47,850 nt of DNA from Candidatus Micrarchaeota archaeon (GTDB taxonomy: Archaea > Micrarchaeota > Micrarchaeia > CAILAH01), in the NCBI GenBank assembly GCA_026413685.1, contig JAOAKK010000001.1:1-47850 (forward strand), read 5' to 3'. Below the pieces are notes generated by a model that was not told the origin of the DNA, did not search any database, and worked only from the letters and a program-made list of their open reading frames with translations. Shown here piece by piece: positions 7,170-37,869 of this stretch (within the stretch, counting starts at the first letter, position 1; each line of letters begins with the position of its first letter). A program made the translations under genes and the position numbers.

Positions 7170-7988
7170 ATGGCTGTACGAAAGAAGGCAGGCACTATTC
7201 CAAATGGCACACAGACAGCCAATGAGGCAACACAAGCAGCAGAAAAGCAGGAGGCAAGCCAGCTAAGCAGCACGCTAGGCGAAGCAATCAATAAATACAA
7301 GCAGCTCGCCTTTAATGTGGCGTCTGCAATGCCTTACAGTTCCATGAAGCCCTGGGTTGCGTGTGCCGATGACAAGATAGAAGAAGTACTCAATGAAAAT
7401 CGCACGCTCCTCCTTAATTTAAAAGACATATACGTGCTTGCAATCATCCGCGTGATTATGGCCATAATTGCATTTTGGCCAATAAGTTTCCTTCTTTTTT
7501 CATCAATGGCAATACTCGTAGCATCTTTAGGCATGCTGGCTGCAGGAATTGGGGGCAACACACCGATGGCCTTTGCTGGTGTGATCCTGGCTGCAGCGGT
7601 TATACTTGTGCTATTGCCTTCCCTCAAGTTTCTGGCTAGCTCTGCAATCATGCACATAATTGCAAAGCTGGCAGGGGGCAAGGCAACATTTACTGGGACA
7701 TCATCGATAATCCTCTTGTCAGAAGCAGCGTTTACAGTTCTTATGGTACCAATGTGCCTTGCATATGCACTGCTGTTTGGATACCTGATTGGTTTTCTCA
7801 GCTATGCAGTATTTGCATATATGGTTTATCTGCAGTATAGGGGTGTAAAGCATATGCATGCCCTTTCACCGAAACGCGCAGCAATCGTTGTGCTTGCCTC
7901 TCTTGCAGTTGAAGCATTCTTAATACTTGCGGTTTTGGGCGTGCTGGTATTTATGCCCTATGGCTATATCATATTATCTAAGGTGTAA
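7170..7988 (+). CDS. Multi-pass membrane protein, Yip1-like (paralog 1)
   Basis: Polar N-terminus followed by about 5 TM helices. Shares AKLAGGKATFTG / AKLVGGSADFS and overall layout with the next ORF. The Yip1 assignment is from memory of the family pattern only. Confidence 0.45.
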   Translation: MAVRKKAGTIPNGTQTANEATQAAEKQEASQLSSTLGEAINKYKQLAFNVASAMPYSSMKPWVACADDKIEEVLNENRTLLLNLKDIYVLAIIRVIMAIIAFWPISFLLFSSMAILVASLGMLAAGIGGNTPMAFAGVILAAAVILVLLPSLKFLASSAIMHIIAKLAGGKATFTGTSSIILLSEAAFTVLMVPMCLAYALLFGYLIGFLSYAVFAYMVYLQYRGVKHMHALSPKRAAIVVLASLAVEAFLILAVLGVLVFMPYGYIILSKV

Positions 7989-7990
7989 TC

Positions 7991-8740
7991 ATGGGAGACT
8001 TTGATAAGGTTATGAGCGCCTATCTGGGCTATGTTGACCGTGTAAGATCCTTTATACCTTACAAGAGGGTTGCTTTGTGGAAGGATTTTTTCCTAAACCC
8101 CCTGAAGGTGATCGGTGCATCAAAGGATAGCATAATGACTATCTTGAAAGACCTTTACATGATGGGAATACTTTCGTTCATTATATGGCTAGCAAGCGCA
8201 TTCATACCCCAGGCAATAGTGCAGCTTGTGCTTAACCCAGGCATGTCCGCAATATCAATTCCATTACTGGCTTTTATGCTTATCGCCTCAATAGTGTTTC
8301 TTGCTGTTCTGCCATTGATGTCTGCAGCATACGCTTTTCTTGAGTTTATAGTTGCAAAATTGGTTGGCGGGAGTGCGGATTTCAGCAGGCACCTGTTTGC
8401 ATCTGCAATGCCACAGCTTGGAATGTTTGCATTTTTGCTGCCAATAACAATTTTGCAGGCCGTGCTGGGAATATTCTCAATAATCCCATTTTTAGGGCTT
8501 GCTTTAACGTGCCTTTTACTTCCACTGCAGATTGTCGTCCTGTGTGCATGGCTTTACACAATTTACCTTAAGTTTTTGTCATTCAAGGAAGTGCACAAAG
8601 TAAGCGGCATAAGAGCAGCAGCAATAATCATAATTCCATTGATAGTTATAGCTGTGCTGGTGGTAGCACTCGCAATGTTGTTCTACACTTCTATAATGGG
8701 TTTTCTTATAGGCACTTCACTGCCACCAAGAGTTTCTTAA
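7991..8740 (+). CDS. Multi-pass membrane protein, Yip1-like (paralog 2)
   Basis: Tandem paralog of 7170..7988, separated by a 2-nt gap, with the same topology and motif. Confidence 0.45.
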   Translation: MGDFDKVMSAYLGYVDRVRSFIPYKRVALWKDFFLNPLKVIGASKDSIMTILKDLYMMGILSFIIWLASAFIPQAIVQLVLNPGMSAISIPLLAFMLIASIVFLAVLPLMSAAYAFLEFIVAKLVGGSADFSRHLFASAMPQLGMFAFLLPITILQAVLGIFSIIPFLGLALTCLLLPLQIVVLCAWLYTIYLKFLSFKEVHKVSGIRAAAIIIIPLIVIAVLVVALAMLFYTSIMGFLIGTSLPPRVS

Positions 8741-16444: not shown

Positions 16445-17176
16445 ATGGCACACGTGCTTGGCAGGTGCAAAGCGCACAGCCAAAACTGCAGTGTTATCCA
16501 GAGAGTTCGCACAAGGCAAGGGCAGGCATCCATCGAGCTCATCTCAATACTCGCAGTTGCACTCCTTGTCCTTGGGATTTTGATGGCAACGTCACGGTCT
16601 GCATTCGAGGATATGCAGGCATCGCTCGACTCGCAGCTTACAGAGCGCAGCCTGCGCGAGCTGGCCGGGCTTGCAAAGCTTGCTTATGATGGAGGGCCTG
16701 GCTCTACCCAAAAATCTGTCTTGCACGTCCCATCAACAGTTGTGCAGAATGAATCCTACATATCAGGCAGGATAATCAACATCCGGCTTGAGCAAAAGTA
16801 TGGCGTGAAAGACGTCCCACAAGTTTTTCAGTTCCCTATAAGTGGTGACCTCTCATTTGCACCAGGTGATTATGAGGTGTATGCCGTTTCGCATACAGGC
16901 TATGTGTTCATAACAGAGAACCCATCGCTTGCTGTCTCACGCACGCTCATATACGCACGGCCGGGCGAGGAAGTATCCGTTAAAGTGAGGAATCCTGGAA
17001 GTAAGAGTACTGTCATAACTACAAAACCAACCGGCGGTATTGGGCTTAGCTGGCAATCACAGGAAATCGCCGCGGGTGCCGAAGCCGAGCTAAAGATTAT
17101 TCCTTTATCTTCAGGGAAGGTACAGCTCACAAGCTCAAGCGGTGAGCGCGAGACGATATCAGTAGAGGTGCGCTGA
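16445..17176 (+). CDS. Secreted protein with class III (type IV pilin-like) signal peptide
   Basis: RQGQASIELISILAVALLVLGIL matches the archaeal prepilin pattern [KR]GQ-S-x-E followed by a hydrophobic helix. The rest is beta-rich. Confidence 0.6.
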   Translation: MAHVLGRCKAHSQNCSVIQRVRTRQGQASIELISILAVALLVLGILMATSRSAFEDMQASLDSQLTERSLRELAGLAKLAYDGGPGSTQKSVLHVPSTVVQNESYISGRIINIRLEQKYGVKDVPQVFQFPISGDLSFAPGDYEVYAVSHTGYVFITENPSLAVSRTLIYARPGEEVSVKVRNPGSKSTVITTKPTGGIGLSWQSQEIAAGAEAELKIIPLSSGKVQLTSSSGERETISVEVR

Positions 17177-17177
17177 A

Positions 17178-17558
17178 ATGTGCCGCGGCCAGGTTGTATT
17201 TGATTTTCTTGTTGCACTAAGCGCATTGGGAATCCTTTTTGCGGCGCTTGTTGCAGTTGCGCATACGCAAGGGCAGCAGTCTGCATTGCACGCATCAAGA
17301 CTTGTGATGGAGCGCACCTGTGAGGACATATCGCAGAAGCTCATTTCAGCAAAATTGGAGGGTGAAGGCTCTGTAAGGGCTTTCTATTCCAAGTTTCCTG
17401 TCACGCTTAAGGGCGGCTCGCGCGAAATACAGATTGCCGATTCATACATCTGCATAACACCGGAGCAATATGACTCAAAAGAAAGCAACAGTACAGATGG
17501 CGAGTTCTGGATAGAAAATAGGGGAGGTAGGCTCACAATAGTGCGCCCAGCCCAATAA
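17178..17558 (+). CDS. Small pilin-like protein with class III signal peptide
   Basis: MCRGQVVFDFLVALSALGILFAALVAV. Starts 1 nt after the preceding stop. Confidence 0.55.
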   Translation: MCRGQVVFDFLVALSALGILFAALVAVAHTQGQQSALHASRLVMERTCEDISQKLISAKLEGEGSVRAFYSKFPVTLKGGSREIQIADSYICITPEQYDSKESNSTDGEFWIENRGGRLTIVRPAQ

Positions 17559-17953: not shown

Positions 17954-18059
17954 GCACAACACCACTCTATTTAGCACCTCTACCATTTTTAAAAGTTTGT
18001 GAAGCAAAAACGCAAAAAAAGTATTTAAGCAACGTTCTCATTTCACCTTTATGGATAAG

Positions 18060-18143
18060 CGCTAGGGGGGAGATTTGAACTCCCGCGGCCTTGCGACCAC
18101 TGGATTAGCAATCCAGCGCCCTACCGGACTAGGCGACCCCAGC
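18060..18143 (-). tRNA. tRNA-Ser (GCU), no intron, no encoded CCA
   Basis: Folded by hand. Acceptor GCUGGGG/CCCUAGC, anticodon arm CUGGA-UUGCUAA-UCCAG, long variable arm UGGUCGCAAGGCCGC, T arm GGGAG-UUCAAAU-CUCCC, discriminator G. Confidence 0.9.
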
Positions 18144-18193: not shown

Positions 18194-18487
18194 GCAGATA
18201 GCTCTGTTTTCTTCCGCTGCACGTGGATTCACCGGGATGGACTGTGCACCAATGTTAAGGCACCCCGCACACCAACTCCCTCCTGTTGGCTTACGGCACG
18301 GCACACAGTGCTTAGGGCTGCTCCTTCCGGCCTAACCCGGTTCACACAATGAGCCGCCGCGTAAGGCAGGAGATCTACGCGGGACGTGCGGACCCGCTCA
18401 CCAGCACACAGCCTCTCCCGGCTTTTCGGCCCCGCCTAAAGGGGATCTGCGGTGACAAGGGACCCCTGGCCCCCCAGCCTATCCGGC
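18194..18487 (-). ncRNA. Signal recognition particle RNA (7S / SRP RNA)
   Basis: Minus-strand AGGCCGGAAGGAGCAGCCCUAAGC matches the conserved helix-8 motif with its GGAA tetraloop. Long helix-5 pairing (GGCUGUGUGCUGGUG with CAUUGGUGCACAGUC). The 5' GCCGGAUAGGCU pairs with the 3' AGCUAUCUGC. TATA about 20 nt upstream and a U-run just downstream. Ends are accurate to about +/-5 nt. Confidence 0.8.
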
Positions 18488-18544: not shown

Positions 18545-18710
18545 TGCAGGGAGCAGGATTTTCAGGATTTCCTGGCAGAGCCCTTTAGGTATACCAAAAG
18601 GGAGTTTGAACCTGCGAAGGCGCTAGGCCACCAGATCTCCCATCACACTTTTGTGATGAAAGCACGGTGCATCTTGAGTCTGGCGCGTTTGACCACTCCG
18701 CCATCCCTGC
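18545..18710 (-). tRNA. tRNA-Leu (CAA) with two introns (canonical 37/38 and T-loop)
   Basis: Hand fold. Acceptor GCAGGGA/UCCCUGC with discriminator A. Anticodon arm CCAGA-CUCAAG|intron 18637-18672 (36 nt)|A-UCUGG. T arm GCAGG-UUCAAA|intron about 18559-18604 (about 46 nt)|U-CCUGC. Mature length about 84 nt with a long variable arm. Confidence 0.8.
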
Positions 18711-18819
18711 ACTTTTTGGATTAAGCGCTTTAAAACTATTTAATGCTATTTGCATGTATTTTGCAGTGTCCCCACGAAGAGATTTTCCGGTATAGCATTT
18801 ATTGGATAGGTCAAATGTA

Positions 18820-18837
18820 GAATATATTTAAACATTC
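18820..18837 (+). promoter_or_regulatory. TATA/BRE-like promoter motif of the 1,218-aa gene
   Basis: GAATATATTTAAACATTC. The TATA core ends 22 nt before ATG 18855, a leaderless-type spacing. Confidence 0.5.
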
Positions 18838-18854
18838 ACACAGATTTATCCCTT

Positions 18855-21800
18855 ATGAATTATCGTGGGGCAGGTCTGCTCTTTTTGCTGTTGCTCTTTA
18901 TGCTAAGTATGGGCTGCCTTGAAAGCTCAGTCCCACTTGCACAGAAGAAAGCGGTGATTGAGAAGGCCCAGCAGTCGGATACAGATGGGGATGGCATACC
19001 TAACATATGGAAGTATACATTCATGCCACAGGGTGATGGCAGGCTCCAGATATCAAAAGAGATAATAATTGTGGGGATGCAGAAAAACCCGGAGTTTGAA
19101 ATTCAGCCAGCATACAAGAGAGATGAGCAGGCATCATCAACTTATTATGACCTGCTTACAAACCTCGCAACAATAACGCTGAACTGCAACTACGCGCTTG
19201 AAGATGTCATAACAGTATGTGGCACTGAGGCTGAATGCCAGAGCCTCTGCACCTCAAACGTGCGCTGCAACAACGGGTTGAACAAATATCCTGCCCTGAA
19301 CGGCACGCTCTACCAGACAGCAGTTGATTTTTCAAACGTAAAAAGAAAGGCCACGGCGTTGCGTGCTGCCATAGCATCAAAAAGCCAGCTGAGCCAGGCG
19401 GATGTTGATAACATACTGCTCCAGCGTGATGAGCTCACAAAGGCGATAAACCGCCTCCTGTCAGACAAGGCGTTTGACCTTGGCATATGCTCGCAGAATG
19501 AGCTCGTTGTTGCACGCGAGCAGCTTGTACAGCTACAGGGCATATATGTTGAGGATGAGAGTGCAACCAAGGCACAGTATTACACGGCATATTCGAAGTT
19601 TGAGATAACGTCACGCACATCATACCTTTATGATGAGAATGCAATTATAGATGCAGATGAGATAATCCCGGAATCATTTGCCGCCAGGAAGTCTGATATT
19701 ACTTTCTTGACAGTGCCCCCGATATATGTGTCTGACTCAATCCCGCTCACCGCACGGTACCGCGTGAGCTTCAAGAAGCCTTCAGATACCCGCACAGATT
19801 TTGGATATAAGGTTATTGCACCGCCCGCAAACTGGGATTTGGAGATGCAGAAAATAACCTACCCATCCGGCACAATACGTGTGCTTGCCCTTGAAAATAT
19901 AGGTGTGTATGTTGAGGGAAGGGCACTGTTCAATTCTGCGCTTGCAGTGCTTCGCACATACGTTGGCTTTGGGTTTGGCCTTGCATTTGTCTCTTTCATT
20001 GTGCTGCTCATAATATACCTGGTGTATACGCTTCTCCGCCTTGTTTATAATGTGTTTATAAGTGCGAGCAGGCACGAGCCCATAATGGAGGCAGTATACA
20101 GGGTTGCAGGGTATGGTGGCCGTGGAAGGAAAGAGTTCATAATAGCAGCAGCGCTTGCGATTATTGCAGGCTCTTACCTGCTCGCTTCTGCGGGCGAGCC
20201 GAAGACTGATGATGTGGTTGTTGCCCTGGCAACAAGCACGGGCTTGCTTTTAGGTGTCTCGGCTTTTGTGGTAGGCCTTGTGCTATTAGGGTTTGTAATT
20301 GAAGACCTGGTAAAGGCGCGGCTGCTTGGTGAGCGGTATGTCCGTGCCCCTGTTGAGCACGGCATCCGCAAGGTCGTGGTTGAGAAAGAGATGCGTGATG
20401 AGCTTCAGAAGATGCGCAAGGACATAATGTCGCTTAAGGAAAGTGCAGCAGTTGCAGGTGTTATTTTTGATGCACAGCGCATAGACAGGTTTTTTGCAGG
20501 GATTTCAGCAGCTGAAACCAATATGTCCCGTGGCAAGCTTGAGGAAGCAGAGCTTATGCTTGAAAAGGAGCTGCGCAAGGAGTATACGGCCCTGCACGAA
20601 ATGCTCTCAGTGAGCATGGACCAGGAGAAGGTCCTTGAGAAGATGCGTGCCGACGTTGAGGATGAGATTGACCAGCTTGAGCAGTTATACAGGAAGGTTG
20701 CAGGGTATAGCATACGGGTTGAGAAGAAGGACTGGCGTGTAGAGGCTAACAGGTACGCAATAATATATTCAGGGCAGGGATTTGTTGCTGCAAAGAAATA
20801 CCTCGATTCGCTGATGGATACAATACGCCAGGAGCGCAGCTCAATCCAGGCAAGGATGTCCGAGCTTGAGCGCCTTATGCTTACAAAATTCCCGTGCCCG
20901 GTATGCAGCCGCACAACAACCCTTGCTTCTGATAGGTGTGAGAGCTGCGGTGTGCCGCTTGAGGAGGGATTTGCCACGAAGGAAAATGAGCTCAGGCAGG
21001 AGCTTAACGGCCTCTCGGTTGAGCTCAAGGCAAAGAAGATTGCGCGTGGCGACCGGCTCGTGGCATCTGTTGAGACGCTGCTCTCACATATGCGTGAGAA
21101 TGTCAATGCAAAGCAGTATAACAAGGCATACGAGCTGGTAACTACGATTGATGAGAAGATGAAATACCTGCGTGAGATTCTTGGAAAGACGATTGCGCAG
21201 GAGGAAGAGCTGAAACAGCATATTGCAGCAATCGGGAAATACCTTGATTCAATCCCAGCCCTGCTTGCGCAGGCTAAGGAGAACAGCATTGACGTATCGG
21301 CTTATGAGAAGAGGTTTGCCGCTTTTAGCAGCAAGGAAGCGCTTGCACAGCTGCAGCAAATGCCTGTTGAGGAAGCTGTCACGAGGAGCAAAGAGCTTTT
21401 GGATGGCTATGCGCTCATTGAGTCAGAGCTTAAGAATACACTTGCAAAGTTTATGATGTCGGTAAGCGCGTTTGAGCGCGTAAACGAGCTTTTCACGGAA
21501 GTATCGACACTCATCACACGCGGCAAGGGGTATGGGATGAGTGTTGAGGAGTATTCAAAAAGGCTCGGTGCGCTCAATGTTGATTCACTGATAAGCTCTA
21601 TCGAAAGGAATGAGGTGAATGAGAAAGAGCTTGCAAACACAGTCAGCATATTATCTGATATGTCAGCCGAGCTTGGCAAGAAAGTTTCAGCAGCCAGGCA
21701 GTTTTCGGAGCAGCTTGATGCGATAGATGCAAAGCTGCACGAGGCGGGCACGCTTGTTGAGGTATGCAAGAAGAACAATCTTGTGCCTTTTGAGGAAATG

Positions 21801-22511
21801 GAGCGGCTTTATGCCACCAGCACCGAGCCGATAAGAAGCAGGCTTGAAAGGTTCGGTATTGATGAGATTGAGCACATAAAGAATGACATAATAAGCCTGA
21901 ATACAAGGGTTGATTCGATCCTCCTTACCCTGCGCAGGAAAAGTGAGGTGCTATCCGCATGGCCCGGGTGGAAGTCTGCGATTGAGGGCTTGCTCCGCAA
22001 GCAGGAGCGTGTTGATCCTGCAATGCTGAGCACAATACCTCCTGAATGGAGGCCTTGGGTGGTTGAGAGGTTTATAGCTGAGACTGACTTGCCGGTTGCG
22101 CTTGAAGGCAACACGATTGTCAAGCTGAAGCCGATAAAAGGAATTTCAAAATCTGACCTTGACAGCATACTCAAGGAGATGATAGATACACAGCGCATAA
22201 TCGGCGGCATGATTTTGCGCAAGGACGGCCTTGTCATCAGCTCAAACCTGCCAAAAGGAGGGGACCCTGAATCCGTTGCAGCGATGAGCGCAAAGGCTAT
22301 GCAGAAGGCAGAAACTGCCTCGAAAGCGCTCAATAAGGGAGATGTGAATTATGTTGCTTTCAACGCAGCGCTTGGCAAGCAGGTGATTGTGCGTGCAGGC
22401 GAGCAGTCACTTATTCTTGCAATCATAAGGCCGGATGAGGACCTAGGGTTTGTGCTATTGGCAATGAAGAAAGCTGCCGATAGGGTAAAGGAAGTTATTG
22501 ATAAGCTATGA
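18855..22511 (+). CDS. Large membrane protein: signal/lipobox-like N-terminus, ecto-domain, about 3 TM helices, helical-repeat coiled coil with zinc ribbon, C-terminal Roadblock/LC7-like domain
   Basis: N-terminus LLFLLLLFMLSMGC. DTDGDGIPN Ca-binding-like motif. TM helices at about aa 370-500. Heptad-rich region of about 600 aa. CPVC..x12..CESC ribbon (nt 20895-20948). The last ~115 aa (ILRKDGLVISS...AAMSAKA...LILAIIRPDEDLGFVLLAMKKAADRV) read as Roadblock/LC7. Confidence 0.8.
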   Translation: MNYRGAGLLFLLLLFMLSMGCLESSVPLAQKKAVIEKAQQSDTDGDGIPNIWKYTFMPQGDGRLQISKEIIIVGMQKNPEFEIQPAYKRDEQASSTYYDLLTNLATITLNCNYALEDVITVCGTEAECQSLCTSNVRCNNGLNKYPALNGTLYQTAVDFSNVKRKATALRAAIASKSQLSQADVDNILLQRDELTKAINRLLSDKAFDLGICSQNELVVAREQLVQLQGIYVEDESATKAQYYTAYSKFEITSRTSYLYDENAIIDADEIIPESFAARKSDITFLTVPPIYVSDSIPLTARYRVSFKKPSDTRTDFGYKVIAPPANWDLEMQKITYPSGTIRVLALENIGVYVEGRALFNSALAVLRTYVGFGFGLAFVSFIVLLIIYLVYTLLRLVYNVFISASRHEPIMEAVYRVAGYGGRGRKEFIIAAALAIIAGSYLLASAGEPKTDDVVVALATSTGLLLGVSAFVVGLVLLGFVIEDLVKARLLGERYVRAPVEHGIRKVVVEKEMRDELQKMRKDIMSLKESAAVAGVIFDAQRIDRFFAGISAAETNMSRGKLEEAELMLEKELRKEYTALHEMLSVSMDQEKVLEKMRADVEDEIDQLEQLYRKVAGYSIRVEKKDWRVEANRYAIIYSGQGFVAAKKYLDSLMDTIRQERSSIQARMSELERLMLTKFPCPVCSRTTTLASDRCESCGVPLEEGFATKENELRQELNGLSVELKAKKIARGDRLVASVETLLSHMRENVNAKQYNKAYELVTTIDEKMKYLREILGKTIAQEEELKQHIAAIGKYLDSIPALLAQAKENSIDVSAYEKRFAAFSSKEALAQLQQMPVEEAVTRSKELLDGYALIESELKNTLAKFMMSVSAFERVNELFTEVSTLITRGKGYGMSVEEYSKRLGALNVDSLISSIERNEVNEKELANTVSILSDMSAELGKKVSAARQFSEQLDAIDAKLHEAGTLVEVCKKNNLVPFEEMERLYATSTEPIRSRLERFGIDEIEHIKNDIISLNTRVDSILLTLRRKSEVLSAWPGWKSAIEGLLRKQERVDPAMLSTIPPEWRPWVVERFIAETDLPVALEGNTIVKLKPIKGISKSDLDSILKEMIDTQRIIGGMILRKDGLVISSNLPKGGDPESVAAMSAKAMQKAETASKALNKGDVNYVAFNAALGKQVIVRAGEQSLILAIIRPDEDLGFVLLAMKKAADRVKEVIDKL

Positions 22512-32860: not shown

Positions 32861-32895
32861 AACCGCATTCTATTTTTCCAAAAAGAAAGAAGTAG

Positions 32896-33081
32896 AGCCG
32901 AGGAAGGGATTTGAACCCCTCTCTGCCGGTCACTGATGGGGCACCAAAGGTTCCCCCTCGTGTTTTTCTGGCACCGCTCTTTTGGCAGTTGTGTGCGAGA
33001 GCACACAATTCGCAACCAAAGGTTATGACTCCCAAAAGAACGGCTCTGCAGCCGGCCGCATAGCCACTCTGCCACCTCGGC
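32896..33081 (-). tRNA. tRNA-Cys (GCA) with a 115-nt intron at the canonical 37/38 position
   Basis: Hand fold. Acceptor GCCGAGG/CCUCGGC, discriminator U73 (the tRNA-Cys identity base). Anticodon arm GCCGG-CUGCAG|intron 32931-33045|A-CCGGC. T arm AGGGG-UUCAAAU-CCCUU. Mature length about 71 nt. Confidence 0.8.
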
Positions 33082-34220: not shown

Positions 34221-35162
34221 TTACTCAGGAGGCGCACCACCCAGCCTTTTCTTTTCAGCCTCAAGCTGCCCATATGCTCTCTTTACTTTCTGCCTATACT
34301 CAAGTGATAGCTTTCCTATACCTTTGTTTTTCTCTTTTGTGCTAATCACTTTGGCAGGCCCTGAATTATACGCTGCGGCAAGCTCATCAATATCCTGTGT
34401 GTTGAGCTGCTTTTGGAGGTATGCAACATATCTTGCAGCATACCTGATTGATAGTGCATAATCAGCCACCGTTTCCTCGTATGGCTTTGCATTTTTGCCA
34501 AGCCCGAGCAATTTGGTTATAGTTTCATAAGTTGGTTTTGTTATCTGCATCAGCCCCCTGGACTCTTTGTTTATGTCTCCTTTCCCAGAGATGGCATTAT
34601 TGTAGAAGTTTGGGTTTTTCTTAAGCCGTTTTCCAACTATATCCAGGGCATTAGTATCGGCCCTTCCGGAATGCTCTGCAACAATCAGTGATGCAATGAA
34701 CAGCGGGTCAACCTTATACATATTTGACCAGTGCATTATCTGTGTCGAGAGGGCATCACCAAACTTCTCAGATAGTGCATTATAATCTATGCTTGTCTTA
34801 TCAACCTGCAATGCGGGCGTAGGTATGGCTTTTTTCCCGGCCACTTTAGGCTTTTCAACAACCGGCACAGTTTTGCCCCCGATGCGTTTTGCAATGGTGA
34901 TTACATAATATTCACGCCCATCAGCATCCTTAGATTTCTTGTTTTTTATGGAAAACTCATTTTCCGGCAAGATTTCCTTAAGCTGTGCAAGTGCATTATT
35001 CATAGAAGCAGGTGTGCCATACCACAATTCAGCATATCTCGTCTTCCCATTGAGTATTTCACGTATGGGCTTTTTTGCAGCTTCAGCCAGCTTTGCCTCT
35101 TCTAGCCGCTGAATTTTGTTTTCTGAGAGTTGCTGTGCCATAGTATACCTATTCAAACCCAT
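34221..35162 (-). CDS. SLT-domain (lytic transglycosylase / goose-lysozyme fold)-like protein, no signal peptide
   Basis: C-terminal half carries the three SLT landmarks in order: catalytic-Glu region LIVAEHSG, SRGLMQITKPTY, and AAAYNSGPAKV. An alternative start is ATG 35141. Confidence 0.65.
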   Translation of the reverse strand: MGLNRYTMAQQLSENKIQRLEEAKLAEAAKKPIREILNGKTRYAELWYGTPASMNNALAQLKEILPENEFSIKNKKSKDADGREYYVITIAKRIGGKTVPVVEKPKVAGKKAIPTPALQVDKTSIDYNALSEKFGDALSTQIMHWSNMYKVDPLFIASLIVAEHSGRADTNALDIVGKRLKKNPNFYNNAISGKGDINKESRGLMQITKPTYETITKLLGLGKNAKPYEETVADYALSIRYAARYVAYLQKQLNTQDIDELAAAYNSGPAKVISTKEKNKGIGKLSLEYRQKVKRAYGQLEAEKKRLGGAPPE

Positions 35163-35164
35163 TG

Positions 35165-35186
35165 CTTATATAGTTTCCTATATAAG
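35165..35186. promoter_or_regulatory. Twin inverted TATA elements in a 31-bp divergent intergenic region
   Basis: CTTATATAG-tttc-CTATATAAG, a perfect 9-bp inverted repeat. It lies between the divergent start codons at 35162 (-) and 35194 (+). Confidence 0.45.
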
Positions 35187-35193
35187 TTATAGT

Positions 35194-37869
35194 ATGAGAT
35201 TCTACTTAGTACTGCTTCTTGTTTTTGCTGGTATCACAGTTGTATATCCGGAAATGGATTATATGGAATGTGCAAGGAATTGTGAGACCATGACAGGCAT
35301 CTGGGCGTGCGACTATGCCTACTGTGCGCTCTATGACATGGCCTCCTACAACGCAATGACGCCGCAGCAGCAGTGCGCATTTGACTGCATATGGGAGTAT
35401 AGGCGGTGCAAGAGCGGGGTGCAGCCAACCGGCAGCGGCTCACAATATTACGAAAATCCAGGTGCTGCCTATCGTGCTGAAAAGGAGGCAACATGCGATA
35501 ATACATACAGGAGCTGTATGGAAGCAAACGAGATAGGTGCGGATTTCTCTGAGCTTGATGATTACTGCGTTAAGAAAGAATCTGACTGCTACACAGCCCT
35601 TCTTGATAAATACTGTAAGCCGGTGCAGGCCTCCTGCGTCACAAAATGCGGCGAGGCAAAGCCGCCCGAGCAGCCTGCCGAGGAGAAAAAGCCGTGCTAT
35701 GGCACAACAACACCACGCGAGTATTGCAATTCTTACTGCAAGTCAAAGCGTGGGAATGATTGCGCGTTCATTGCATATGTGCAGTGGGAGGGCACGGTAA
35801 TTGACTGCTCATGCAACTGCCCAGCTGGCGGTGAGACATATTATAAGATAGACTGCACAAAGCCCCTTCCCCTGGCGCAGCAGGCAACGGACAAGTGCAG
35901 GGGTGTTGAATGCCCCGACAAGTGCGAAGGAGGCATAATGCATACGAAAGGCTCGTGCAATCCAGGCACAGGGGCGTGCACATACAGGGAAGAGCAGTGC
36001 CCGCAAGGATGTGAAGGCAGCACAAAATGCAAGCCTGTGTCAATGCAGGGGGAAGTTTTTTACTATGATTCTTCTGGCAAGAAAGTGCCCTTGAGATTTG
36101 TGAAGATTGAGGCGATCGCAGTAAAAGATTCGCACATCTATGCATATGGCCACCTTTCGACTGATGAGAATGGCAAGTTTGTGTGGGATGACCCGAAAGC
36201 GTTCCAGCCTGGCTATGAGATATCAGTGGAGGTCCTGTTTGATGAGTCAAAAGGCAGGCTATTCCTTGTTGACAACGACCCCACCTTCCCGCTCAGGATT
36301 TTGTATGAAGACAGCATACCTGTTGAAGATAAGCGGCTTTCAAATTACCAGATGGACCTAACAAGCCATAAAGTGCAGGCACTTTCGGATGCAGCAAAGG
36401 TTTTCGTGACGGCACAGAAGGCAGTTGAGTTCAAGGAAAAAGTGTTCAAAAAATCCCAAACCGTTAAAGAGCGGGTTTTCGTGCATAACCCAGGCGGCAA
36501 TTCACACATCTCAGAAGTTTGGAAAGATGAGGACCCAAGCGCACCAGGGATGCGCCTGCTTGAGATGAGCTCTTCCTTTACCTCCTCATACATCGAAGAT
36601 ACAATATACCACGAGTACTGTCACCACATACAAGATGAGCTGTTCAACACAAAGGAGAGCCATCGCGGTAAGGATCACGGTGGCTATTACACAAACCCGG
36701 ATTCTGGCTGGGGCCTTGTTGAGGGATGGGCAGAATATTGTGCGTGGGAGATGAAGAATTACTACAAGGATAACCCAGATTACGACCTCTACCGCATACG
36801 TGGTGTTGCGTTTAACCTTGAGCTGAATTACCAGATGCGCGAGAAAGTATTCCGCGAGAAGAATATCTATAGCACACCCAGCGTGATGGAAGAGATGGCA
36901 ATTGCATCATTACTGGTAGACCTGCGTGATTCGCCACAGTCGCGTGGTGGCATGGATGACGATTTCGTATCCATCCCAATATCAACACTGATGGATGCAT
37001 ACTCACAAAAGCGCGATTTTGGTGATGGGGAAGGCGCAAGGCACGTGAAAACGCTGCGGGACCTTTATGTTGCACTCAAGGAGTCCGGCTACAAGCCGTT
37101 GCTTGAGTATTATGATAAGGACAAGAAGATAACACAGCTTGACAAGATATTCATAATGCACGGCGCATACCAGGACCTAAACAAGAACGGCAGGTGGGAT
37201 GATGGTGAGCCGCCCGGATATTCAGGAAACGGCGCTGCAGCTTCTGAATACAGGAGCGATCTTGAAGCGCTCAACGGCAGTGAAGTGGTTCTTGCGCTTG
37301 TTGACCAGGATGGCAGCCCAATAAAGGAAGGTGTAATGGTGCACGTTGATGTTAAGTTCAGTGGTGATAATGCATACTTATCATATTCCTATGATGTTCC
37401 GGTTTCTGAGGGTGCACTTTATATCCCATACCCGCCACGCGAGTATGATGCAACGATAACGATGTATGCATACCAGCCAGGCACAGGCAGCAGGGCGGCA
37501 GAGCAGCTTGTATTAACAACACAGGAATTCTATGATAAGGTGGACGGCAGCAAGCCGATAGGCACATACTCCGCTAAAGTTACTGTGCAGAAGAACGTCC
37601 CGTGCAAAGAAGACTATGAGTGTGTTTACAAAGGGCAGGGATTATCCTGCAGGAGCGGCTTGTGCACTGCCCAGCCGGCCAAAGCCTCATCGGGCTTGCC
37701 TCAAGGGACAGGCATGTGCAACGCAAACAGCGATTGCGGCCAGGGCTATGTGTGTGAAGCCCATAAATGTGCCAGCAAGGAGGAGCCATCAGGGTTGTGC
37801 CTGGTCCTTCCAGCGCTAGTTGGTCTGGCTGCTGCTGGCAGCGTTGCACTGCGGCGCACAACCAGGTAA
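35194..37869 (+). CDS. Large Cys-rich secreted/surface protein with HExxHH metalloprotease-like motif and C-terminal hydrophobic anchor
   Basis: Signal peptide MRFYLVLLLVFAGITVVYP. About 290-aa Cys-rich N-terminal region. IYHEYCHHIQDEL (nt 36610-36639). Two small Cys-knot-like modules, then GLCLVLPALVGLAAAGSVALRRTTR, which resembles archaeosortase-type C-terminal sorting signals. Start trimmed from 35116. Confidence 0.7.
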   Translation: MRFYLVLLLVFAGITVVYPEMDYMECARNCETMTGIWACDYAYCALYDMASYNAMTPQQQCAFDCIWEYRRCKSGVQPTGSGSQYYENPGAAYRAEKEATCDNTYRSCMEANEIGADFSELDDYCVKKESDCYTALLDKYCKPVQASCVTKCGEAKPPEQPAEEKKPCYGTTTPREYCNSYCKSKRGNDCAFIAYVQWEGTVIDCSCNCPAGGETYYKIDCTKPLPLAQQATDKCRGVECPDKCEGGIMHTKGSCNPGTGACTYREEQCPQGCEGSTKCKPVSMQGEVFYYDSSGKKVPLRFVKIEAIAVKDSHIYAYGHLSTDENGKFVWDDPKAFQPGYEISVEVLFDESKGRLFLVDNDPTFPLRILYEDSIPVEDKRLSNYQMDLTSHKVQALSDAAKVFVTAQKAVEFKEKVFKKSQTVKERVFVHNPGGNSHISEVWKDEDPSAPGMRLLEMSSSFTSSYIEDTIYHEYCHHIQDELFNTKESHRGKDHGGYYTNPDSGWGLVEGWAEYCAWEMKNYYKDNPDYDLYRIRGVAFNLELNYQMREKVFREKNIYSTPSVMEEMAIASLLVDLRDSPQSRGGMDDDFVSIPISTLMDAYSQKRDFGDGEGARHVKTLRDLYVALKESGYKPLLEYYDKDKKITQLDKIFIMHGAYQDLNKNGRWDDGEPPGYSGNGAAASEYRSDLEALNGSEVVLALVDQDGSPIKEGVMVHVDVKFSGDNAYLSYSYDVPVSEGALYIPYPPREYDATITMYAYQPGTGSRAAEQLVLTTQEFYDKVDGSKPIGTYSAKVTVQKNVPCKEDYECVYKGQGLSCRSGLCTAQPAKASSGLPQGTGMCNANSDCGQGYVCEAHKCASKEEPSGLCLVLPALVGLAAAGSVALRRTTR

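Follow-up and report, generated by a model that had tools for sequence, protein, structure and literature searches.

The regulation of small GTPases by Roadblock/LC7 domains is ancient, but to our knowledge the positioning of these domains within cells is little understood outside Myxococcus, Streptomyces and the eukaryotic Ragulator. A 48-kb window (the whole stretch of 47,850 nucleotides analysed here) from a Micrarchaeota (DPANN) archaeon contains a gene in which such a domain forms the end of a very long membrane protein. The locus raises two questions, whether this is a single genuine gene and what a protein of this construction might do. The features on which the answers rest are collected in Table 1.

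Table 1. Features of the gene and of its predicted product
Feature	Residues (aa)	Position in window	Strand	Basis
TATA-like promoter element TATATTTAAAC		18823..18833	+	read from sequence; putative function
Complete ORF, 1218 aa	1-1218	18855..22511	+	translation; start M1
Signal peptide with lipobox-like end (...LSMG-C21)	1-21	18855..18917	+	hydropathy; invariant G20, C21
Ecto-domain, about 340 aa	22-360	18918..19934	+	AF2 model, mean pLDDT 73
DxDxDG calcium-binding-type motif DTDGDGIPN	42-50	18978..19004	+	D42, D44, D46, P49 invariant
Cys cluster	111-139	19185..19271	+	invariant Cys; family consensus retains C...C...C...C pattern
Membrane block: three TM helices, TM1-TM2 loop, post-TM3 motif	361-500	19935..20354	+	hydropathy, positive-inside charge, AF2 helices
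Cytoplasmic helical shaft, six 82-aa modules	501-1029	20355..21941	+	AF2, hhalign, core spacing, heptad pattern
Zinc ribbon CPVC-x10-CESC, between modules 2 and 3	681-698	20895..20948	+	invariant Cys, AF2
preR element	1030-1098	21942..22148	+	WPGW...IPPEWRPWVVERF helix and beta hairpin; conservation, AF2
Roadblock/LC7 domain with C-terminal helix	1099-1218	22149..22508	+	Pfam PF03259, PDB matches

An earlier note on this DNA had described the gene as one uninterrupted ORF and had named misassembly as the danger to its reading. The ORF is complete, ends in a stop codon and has no interruptions. A single gene of the same architecture, with identical flanking genes and with all regions of the protein conserved in sequence, was found in at least nine independent assemblies (NCBI, ENA, JGI, Logan); an artefact, be it a chimeric ORF created by misassembly or a fusion of separate genes, is therefore refuted and practically inconceivable. 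Comparison of loci showed that the gene is inherited vertically and lies in core housekeeping neighbourhoods. The database record of the protein begins at M19 (1200 aa). Judging from the homologues, the true start is M1, because all of them keep the hydrophobic N-terminal segment ahead of M19; the M19 start is a matter of start-site calling, not of fusion. The centre of the TATA-like element is approximately 27 nt before the ATG, and since this distance leaves no room for a leader, a leaderless transcript starting from the ATG at 18855 is plausible. Of the leaderless-type promoter proposed earlier, the element at a fitting distance was thus found, and the leaderless start itself is kept as plausible only. 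The neighbouring SRP RNA gene is likewise preceded by a similar TTTAAA motif.

The N-terminal hydrophobic segment is closed by LSMGC at aa 17-21. Taking a lipobox as a signal peptide followed by [LVI][ASTVI][GAS]-Cys, the residues S-M-G-C21 after L17 conform to it, a match of motif that makes C21 a candidate site of lipidation. G20 and C21 are invariant among eight close homologues, and an early Cys is present in 93 of the 98 family members that have an N-terminal hydrophobic region, with Gly at position -1 in 87 of these 93. The family-wide pattern is [LFSI][FSAL]G-C, position -3 being mostly L, F, I or S. In the AF2 model the ecto-domain begins and ends with a beta part, between which lies a helical part rich in Cys; the domain gave no Pfam match and no significant fold match in PDB or BFVD. 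The residues D42-T-D44-G-D46-G47 follow the D-x-D-x-D-G pattern and form a putative Ca2+ site read from the sequence, and a D-x-[DN]-x-[DN]-G motif was found not farther than 60 aa from the lipobox Cys in 68 of the 93 members. Six Cys of the ecto-domain (C111, C122, C128, C132, C138 and C212) are invariant. Together, the invariant lipobox Gly-Cys, the DxDxDG motif and the six Cys are consistent with an extracytoplasmic, stably folded domain.

Hydropathy placed the TM segments at approximately aa 370-396, 428-446 and 462-484, where helices are present in the AF2 model too. The loops following TM1 and TM3 are rich in K/R and the loop between TM2 and TM3 is acidic, hence the C-terminus is predicted to be cytoplasmic. 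The cytoplasmic TM1-TM2 loop contains the conserved stretch EAVYRVAGYGGRGR (aa 412-425) with invariant residues, and the motif LGERYVRAP (aa 491-499) follows TM3. The membrane block was found family-wide with the family's own HMM.

The shaft was modelled as helical (AF2 pLDDT 80-94), and in the best register 69-88% of the heptad a/d positions are hydrophobic versus 36-47% overall. The module cores begin at aa 534, 616, 727, 810, 892 and 974, with a period of 82 aa, and the only longer gap, between cores 2 and 3, is occupied by the zinc ribbon. AF2 models each module as a helix of about 50 residues capped by two short helices, and the core of the cap is A/G-x-x-G-h-D/x-V. Homology between modules was significant in hhalign for modules 4-6 only (S4-S5, E=4e-8; S5-S6, E=3e-4), all in register, and longer homologues, including P0005 and P0007, have extra module copies in tandem. 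The repeats sharing a short core that had been noticed before are present, but they are six in number and 82 aa long, not at least five of about 100 aa. Similarly, the long coiled coil proposed there agrees with the helicity and the heptad pattern, whereas the modelled architecture is that of helical-bundle repeats. The zinc ribbon was correctly placed between modules 2 and 3, with a spacing that on counting is x10 instead of x12. Its four Cys (C681, C684, C695 and C698), arranged as two CxxC knuckles, are all invariant, AF2 models short beta strands at the site, and metal binding is predicted from sequence. The ribbon is triplicated in P0005, where matches to the DZR family were only faint.

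The element located ahead of the Roadblock domain, here called preR, is characterised by the family motif WPxW…IPxxWRxW plus a β-hairpin; AF2 places its helix at 1063-1076 and its strands at 1081-1090. The element is specific to the family, has no Pfam or PDB sequence match, and was detected in family members more widely than any other part. Mean pairwise identity is 66% in preR and 67% in Roadblock, compared with 48-52% in the other regions. Because one member, P0013, consists of six [module+preR] units and lacks the terminal Roadblock, preR may be the functional core rather than the Roadblock domain. The Roadblock assignment itself is firm: Pfam PF03259 matched aa 1104-1188 with 37.8 bits (gathering score, 23 bits) and E=1.6e-9 for the whole protein, over profile positions 4-88 of 91, and with E=6.5e-11 when the C-terminal domain was used in isolation. 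The Asgard Roadblock chains 7f8m_A and 9jue_D matched aa 1103-1216 at E~1e-9, and CvnB5 (3leq) matched the domain at E=1e-3. The AF2 model of this part shows the secondary-structure elements in the order expected for the alpha-beta-beta-alpha-beta-beta-beta Roadblock fold, but with pLDDT below 50. Identity with the MglB-type GAP (NCBIfam equivalog NF052242) was rejected, since the score of 14.8 bits (E=0.022) falls short of the cutoff of 200. The earlier note had derived the same overall architecture, with ecto-domain, TM helices, helical shaft, zinc ribbon and C-terminal Roadblock, and its details for the lipobox-like leader, the DTDGDGIPN motif with the Cys cluster, the approximately three TM helices with cytoplasmic C-terminus and the Roadblock-like last ~115 aa, for which it had suggested the PF03259 search, all proved sound.

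An exhaustive profile search yielded 117 family representatives; all named ones but one belong to Micrarchaeota, and preR and Roadblock are retained in nearly all 117. In the short forms the C-terminal tail has diverged, yet hhalign shows it to be a Roadblock homologue (93.7%, E=1.9e-7). Spacer lengths fall in steps of ~85, 530 or 900-1080 aa, corresponding to 1, 6-7 or 11-13 modules, with both ends kept, and the commonest form has a single module (39/55). By these comparisons the window protein is no one-off but represents the long form within a family that spans the phylum. The stepped spacer, the conserved ends and the module duplication in P0005 and P0007 would suit a role of the rod as spacer or ruler. 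The statement that this architecture is not a described family holds for the literature searched, in which no description was found, but many members already carry the database label 'roadblock/LC7 domain-containing protein'.

In the MglB-MglA, Ragulator-Rag and CvnB-CvnD systems, small GTPases are bound by Roadblock dimers and come under their control (PMC4316618, PMC10933270). Our preferred reading, which we put forward tentatively and as a good possibility at best, is that the protein serves Micrarchaeota, and them alone, as a membrane-tethered Roadblock platform for an NTPase partner. The chain is predicted to expose its ecto-domain outside, cross the membrane three times, continue as a cytoplasmic rod and end in the preR-Roadblock head. 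By analogy with Roadblock domains elsewhere, the heads of two chains would pair, and the paired heads would offer a surface for docking and regulating the NTPase, for which a small GTPase from another place in the genome is the most likely choice, with the rod keeping this surface a set distance off the membrane. The ecto-domain would link the platform to the cell envelope, i.e. the space under the S-layer, and changes outside (Ca2+, an envelope or contact ligand) might reach the head through the TM block and the conserved cytoplasmic loop. We infer the GTPase link of this family solely from what Roadblock domains do in other systems. The earlier note had advised a genome search for MglA/Arf-like GTPases; as run on the 48-kb window and on the regions up to 10 kb from family members in three neighbourhood types, the search found no GTPase of the Ras/Arf/MglA/Rag type. 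No second Roadblock or longin gene was seen in the window or in the flanking regions examined.

MglB of Myxococcus and Thermus, the GAP of MglA, resembles the C-terminal 120 aa in fold family, in the C-terminal helix and in the expected dimeric platform, but it is small and soluble and its gene lies beside mglA, whereas the domain described here is the terminus of a membrane protein of 1218 aa with no mglA-like gene nearby. Sequence similarity is greatest, with E~1e-9 across the full domain, to stand-alone archaeal Roadblocks (Asgard; PDB 7F8M, 9JUE, 7YH1), single domains of ~120 aa without preR, rod, TM or ecto-domain; the Asgard proteins form homodimers (PMC10933270). Ragulator/LAMTOR shares the proposed logic of membrane-held Roadblock dimers that dock GTPases (Rag), but it is anchored by a separate lipidated subunit, LAMTOR1, and has no ecto-domain or rod; homology to it ends at the Roadblock fold, and the GTPase partner is here only proposed. 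In the Streptomyces conservon a membrane sensor and a Roadblock protein also cooperate at the membrane. The conservon is an operon of four genes (CvnA sensor kinase, CvnB Roadblock, CvnC DUF742, CvnD GTPase), whereas the family has one gene in which sensor and Roadblock would be fused in one chain, without kinase, DUF742 or GTPase neighbour. No conservon kinase, DUF742 or GTPase domains were found in the protein or its neighbours, and identity with a Streptomyces-type conservon was rejected for want of the four-gene operon.

The same rod can be read differently, as part of a membrane skeleton or as a spacer analogous to EzrA or spectrin, which would organise the membrane on its cytoplasmic side or the site of division and in which the Roadblock domain would only dimerise, free of any GTPase. 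We regard this as somewhat unlikely. A membrane anchor followed by tandem modules of ~80-110 aa built from long helices is common to the family and to EzrA/spectrin-type proteins, the module number varies stepwise, and the core housekeeping position with vertical inheritance would suit a structural component, as would the lack of a GTPase near the gene in every neighbourhood type. The only fold neighbours of the rod, none of them significant, also point this way: vinculin, EzrA (4uy3, TMt 0.43), plakin spectrin repeats and the N-terminal domain of BB0323 (6rjx, TMt 0.62). However, the shaft gave no significant family or fold match, all Foldseek matches having E>0.2 (EzrA, E=5), and Pfam Spectrin and EzrA did not match the window protein and gave isolated sub-threshold matches only in relatives. 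The family differs from EzrA and spectrin in its 82-aa period of long helix and two-short-helix cap, in the inserted zinc ribbon and in its terminal domain. Moreover, the single-module form that predominates is too short for a skeleton, and the preR-Roadblock head is more conserved than the rod.

The earlier note had suggested an outside-in signalling or cytoskeleton/membrane-remodelling device that could relate to cell-cell contact. As a host-contact receptor, the protein would bind the host surface with its ecto-domain, and the rod and Roadblock head would relay the contact into the symbiont to remodel the contact site. Micrarchaeota belong to the DPANN archaea and attach to Thermoplasmatales hosts, with surface remodelling at the contact sites (PMC8975820), the family is limited to this symbiotic phylum, and the ecto-domain shares with many adhesion domains a Ca2+-type motif and disulfide-type Cys. 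This proposal is weakened, and we consider it improbable, since the ecto-domain is not hypervariable: its mean pairwise identity of 52% equals that of the rod and compares with 51% for the remainder of the protein, and its motifs are conserved phylum-wide although hosts differ. Nor does its fold resemble that of known adhesins, fusogens or proteins of viral attachment. Micrarchaeota have an S-layer (PMC8975820), and the ecto-domain (~345 aa) probably sits under it; a membrane-proximal domain of ~340 aa is unlikely to pass through such a layer.

MglA and MglB control type IV pili, and in an echo of this the protein could be a platform that positions or regulates a pilus-like apparatus. In two of the three neighbourhood types, pilin-like ORFs were found at a distance of 1-3 kb from the gene, recognised by an N-terminus resembling a class-III signal peptide ([KR][GA] followed by a hydrophobic helix that is acidic at +5) (window positions 16445-17176 and 17178-17558; loci L001, L003 and L005; L013 and L014), compared with 0 in shuffled controls, and the Roadblock arCOG02603 has been reported from many archaeal T4P loci (Makarova et al. 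2016, PMC4858521). We nevertheless hold this explanation to be very improbable. Genes for the pilus ATPase (PilB/FlaI) and platform (PilC/FlaJ) are missing from all locus tables, an opposite-strand ACT gene, a tRNA and the SRP RNA intervene between the pilin-like genes and the family gene, and the Anstonellales loci and L006 have no pilin-like genes. As there are just three independent contexts, the association is not statistically secure.

Returning to the membrane-tethered platform, a bolder version of it, which we consider unlikely as a whole, would make the protein a single-chain envelope-to-cytoplasm signalling device that defines Micrarchaeota. It would combine a lipid-anchored, Ca2+-dependent ecto-domain, three TM helices, a stepwise-adjustable ruler and a dimeric preR-Roadblock head switching a small GTPase, with preR as a new partner-binding domain; it would be a covalently fused prokaryotic counterpart of Ragulator and control division, polarity or the host-contact site of these ultra-small symbionts. 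Genome-reduced symbiotic archaea keep few non-essential genes. A family in which a Roadblock domain is permanently joined to the membrane and to an extracytoplasmic domain, and which is retained phylum-wide in such archaea, is therefore a concrete candidate for part of the machinery by which Micrarchaeota organise their envelope, divide or make contact with the host. Three of its parts, the ecto-domain, the 82-aa module and preR, represent new sequence families without structural or functional precedent, and the stepped spacer amounts to a natural experiment that asks if the distance to the membrane is important.

The ORF at 18855-22511 (+ strand) is uninterrupted and codes for a single protein of 1218 amino acids, in which all elements listed in an earlier note made from the sequence were found. 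A word-indexed search detected eight clusters of full-length relatives (44-100% identity), all from Micrarchaeota or Micrarchaeia MAGs, which could be aligned end to end with the protein. The contigs of the relatives originated from NCBI, ENA, JGI and Logan assemblies and had a common gene order: ACT-domain gene, (tRNA-Ser, SRP RNA), family gene, TatD, aIF5A, S24e, S27ae, CPBP protease and Kae1. Because the same full-length architecture and gene order occur in independent assemblies, a chimeric misassembly, the concern raised in the earlier note, is ruled out, and the ORF is one real gene. We regard the architecture of the protein as established with high confidence. In the public record (P0001, 1200 amino acids) translation starts at M19 (window position 18909), which cuts off the conserved signal peptide. 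Conservation of the hydrophobic segment ahead of M19 in the homologues, together with the position of the promoter, argues for M1 (18855) as the true start. The leaderless-type promoter proposed earlier stood in part: a TATA-like element (TATATTTAAAC) is centred 27 nt ahead of the ATG, a position that would be compatible with a leaderless mRNA.

The Roadblock/LC7 domain suspected at the C-terminus was borne out by the Pfam Robl_LC7 profile (E=1.6e-9, 37.8 bits, gathering score 23) and by the solved Roadblock proteins 7F8M and 9JUE, with which residues 1103-1216 were aligned at E about 1e-9; Streptomyces CvnB5 (3LEQ) matched the domain with E=1e-3. NCBIfam gave nothing better than E=0.04 for the whole protein, and assignment to the MglB equivalog was rejected (14.8 bits vs a cutoff of 200). 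Database labels of family members are 'roadblock/LC7 domain-containing protein', 'predicted regulator of Ras-like GTPase activity' or 'hypothetical protein'. Full-text literature searches on Roadblock/LC7 in Micrarchaeota/DPANN and on transmembrane/domain architecture found no description of the family, just as the earlier note had recognized none. The systems closest in working logic are Ragulator, in which membrane-anchored Roadblock dimers dock Rag GTPases, and the Streptomyces conservon, which consists of a membrane sensor, a Roadblock protein and a GTPase. In contrast to both, the membrane part and the Roadblock domain are here in one chain; the locus itself was rejected as a conservon. 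What we consider new is the tethering of a known regulatory domain to the membrane in this architecture, together with three sequence modules that could not be assigned.

The hydrophobic N-terminus ends at LSMG-C21, of which G20-C21 is invariant among close homologues. An early cysteine was present in 93 of the 98 family members having an N-terminal hydrophobic region; 87 of these 93 had Gly at position -1, and in 68 a DxDxDG-type motif was not more than 60 amino acids from the Cys. In the window protein this motif is DTDGDGIPN (aa 42-50), and a Cys cluster occupies aa 111-139; the ecto-domain has six invariant cysteines among close homologues. These features would be consistent with an extracytoplasmic domain that is anchored by a lipid, stabilized by disulfide bonds and able to bind Ca2+. 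Three hydrophobic segments were located at approximately aa 370-396, 428-446 and 462-484. The loops after the first and the third are basic (5 K/R vs 3 D/E and 12 K/R vs 8 D/E, respectively), and that between the second and the third is short and acidic. Taking these charges together with the signal-type N-terminus, aa 22-360 are predicted to be outside and aa 486-1218 inside. Compared with the PDB, the model of the ecto-domain and TM block had its best match in topoisomerase VI B (E=1.4e-3 at a TM-score of about 0.1), which gives no fold assignment, and local beta-sandwich matches to mu2-adaptin only at E about 0.1; there was no meaningful match to viral structures. An archaeal fusexin-like ecto-domain, considered for the combination of signal peptide, ecto-domain and three TM helices, found no such match in the fold searches. 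Pfam, PDB and viral fold searches thus left the ecto-domain, the TM block and the preR element (aa 1030-1098) without family or fold assignment.

The cytoplasmic part (aa 486-1218) was modelled with AlphaFold2 from a six-sequence alignment. pLDDT values were 80-94 in the shaft and below 50 in the Roadblock part, and the overall pTM of 0.37 is low for judging whether the rod is extended or bundled. The shaft is a regular series of long helices (aa 562-617, 755-809, 838-892, 923-973 and 1002-1049), with 69-88% hydrophobic residues in heptad positions a/d, each followed by two short helices; shorter helices surround the zinc ribbon. These two-helix caps, starting at aa 534, 616, 727, 810, 892 and 974, are the short cores of the earlier note, whose degenerate modules are present, but as six with an 82-aa period rather than five of about 100 aa. 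Likewise, the zinc ribbon is there (CxxC...CxxC at aa 681-698, within the helical region), with a spacing of x10 and not x12. Profile-profile comparison showed homology in matching register among modules 4, 5 and 6 (S4-S5 E=4e-8, S5-S6 E=3e-4, S4-S6 E=3e-3), and the in-register alignment of modules 1-3 was weak. The modular build is shown independently by two longer family proteins, P0005 (1763 aa) and P0007 (1644 aa), which hold tandem extra copies of the block consisting of modules 1 and 2, the ribbon and module 3. A fold search of the PDB with the shaft model yielded nothing below E=0.26, and spectrin or EzrA repeats were not demonstrable in fold and profile searches.

Between the last module and the Roadblock domain lies preR (WPGWKSAIEGLL...IPPEWRPWVVERF...PVALEGNTIVKLK), modelled by AlphaFold2 as a helix and a beta hairpin. 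Mean pairwise identity was 66% in preR, 67% in the Roadblock domain, 52% in the ecto-domain, 51% in the shaft and 48% in the TM block; the head formed by preR and the Roadblock domain is the best conserved region, and the ecto-domain is about equal to the rod. A profile of the last module and preR, built from 29 diverse members, returned coiled-coil noise only from Pfam and PDB sequences. The Ca. Gugararchaeum adminiculabundum member (P0013, 1720 aa) has six tandem units of helical module and preR, no terminal Roadblock domain, and a long Ala/Pro/Lys/Glu-rich low-complexity stretch; its layout suggests that preR may be able to act without Roadblock.

HMMER was run exhaustively against 1.84 billion representatives with a profile of aa 1-1098, from which the Roadblock domain was omitted. 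This defined a family of 117 proteins at E≤1e-3, including 63 at E≤1e-10. Mapping with family sub-HMMs showed a common layout of ecto-domain, TM block, helical modules, preR and C-terminal domain. Sixty-four members, mostly short forms of about 750 aa, had no Roadblock domain by Pfam or the narrow family HMM; their C-terminal tails are still Roadblock-homologous (hhalign 93.7%, E=1.9e-7). Of 55 members, 39 had 82-97 aa between TM block and preR, 12 had 465-553 aa and four had 904-1077 aa: the distance is quantised, corresponding to 1, 6-7 or 11-13 modules. The source names recovered were Micrarchaeota, Micrarchaeia, Anstonellales and Bilamarchaeaceae; Ca. ainarchaeum sp., the label of one partial protein, was the single exception. 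Among the matches listed in a GTDB genome scan for further loci were two loci, both already known.

Pfam annotation, which covered nearly all of the larger ORFs in the window, showed housekeeping genes, including those for SUF, the pyruvate dehydrogenase complex, lipoate enzymes, translation factors, TFB, a proteasome subunit and FttA. It showed a single GTPase, a ribosome-type MMR_HSR1/RsgA protein encoded 7 kb from the gene. In the Anstonellales short forms the gene is located between the CCA-adding enzyme and gyrB/gyrA, and in the forms of about 600 aa it is flanked by an MJ0043_C-like gene on one side and a PAP2 phosphatase on the other. Neither a Ras/Arf/MglA/Rag-type GTPase nor a second Roadblock gene or a longin gene was found in the window or in the examined loci of the three neighbourhood types, family HMMs run on all ORFs of these loci revealed no paralogue or stand-alone Roadblock gene, and no signalling gene recurred across the three lineage-specific neighbourhoods. 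Roadblock domains are tied to GTPase regulation elsewhere (PMC4316618; PMC10933270). Since there was no partner gene in any neighbourhood examined, such a link for the window protein would be drawn solely from established knowledge of the domain.

Taking into account that the head is the best conserved part, that the ends are fixed and the spacer varies stepwise, and that Roadblock domains elsewhere are dimeric GTPase-docking surfaces, we tentatively favour a membrane-tethered Roadblock platform with a putative NTPase partner. A purely structural role in a membrane skeleton appears less probable. The host-contact receptor proposed in the earlier note is weakened and is kept as a rather improbable rival: the ecto-domain is not variable (52% identity vs 51% in the shaft), and Micrarchaeota have an S-layer (PMC8975820). 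Least probable is a pilus-linked role, for which speak class-III (pilin-like) signal-peptide ORFs at a distance of 1-3 kb in two of three contexts, too few for statistics, and the reported presence of archaeal Roadblock genes within type IV pilus loci (PMC4858521), and against which stands the lack of a pilus ATPase or platform gene near the family gene.

The prepilin-like pair of the window, without Pfam match, is conserved upstream of the gene in three loci (L001, L003 and L005), and a different pilin-like cluster is near the ~600-aa members in loci L013 and L014. In the latter two, an ORF of about 1390 aa that is conserved and has no Pfam match (L013 4017-8189 (-), L014 3886-8070 (-)) lies 2 kb upstream of the family member and adjoins a PRC-barrel protein and an MJ0043_C-like gene. 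The gyrB neighbouring a short form (locus L010, 12586-16179) has an intein carrying a LAGLIDADG endonuclease, and on the contig of family protein P0003 the family gene is separated from TatD by an insertion comprising a reverse-transcriptase (RVT_1) gene and two unknown ORFs.

RNA genes and prepilin-like ORFs of the window
Feature	Position	Strand	Remarks
tRNA-Ser	18060-18143	-	upstream spacer
SRP RNA gene	18232-18486	-	spacer upstream of the ORF; Rfam
tRNA-Cys (GCA)	32895-33081	-	115-nt intron (ARAGORN with introns); Rfam tRNA 39.3 bits
Prepilin-like ORF pair	16445-17176 and 17178-17558	+	class-III signal-peptide-like N-termini (...RQGQASIELISILAVALLVLG, MCRGQVVFDFLVALSALGILF); adjacent, small

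The tRNA-Ser and SRP RNA genes fill much of the ~850-nt spacer between the ACT gene (end at 18007) and the ORF. Within the SRP clan the best model for this archaeal SRP RNA was the Rfam bacterial large SRP (RF01854, 79 bits). A stretch at about 18560-18720 (-), by eye similar to the 5' half of a class-II tRNA (GCAGGGATGGCGGAGTGGTCAAACGCGCCAGACTCAAGA...), was called neither by ARAGORN (with introns) nor by Rfam and may be a remnant, or nothing. Two tandem membrane proteins at 7170-7988 (+) and 7991-8740 (+) matched the Yip1 domain below threshold (26.8 and 22.7 bits, cutoff 28.6); eukaryotic Yip1 proteins are membrane proteins interacting with Rab GTPases. A 917-aa ORF without Pfam match (35116-37869 (+)) adjoins a protein at 34221-35162 (-) with a lytic transglycosylase (SLT) domain, which is unexpected in an archaeon.
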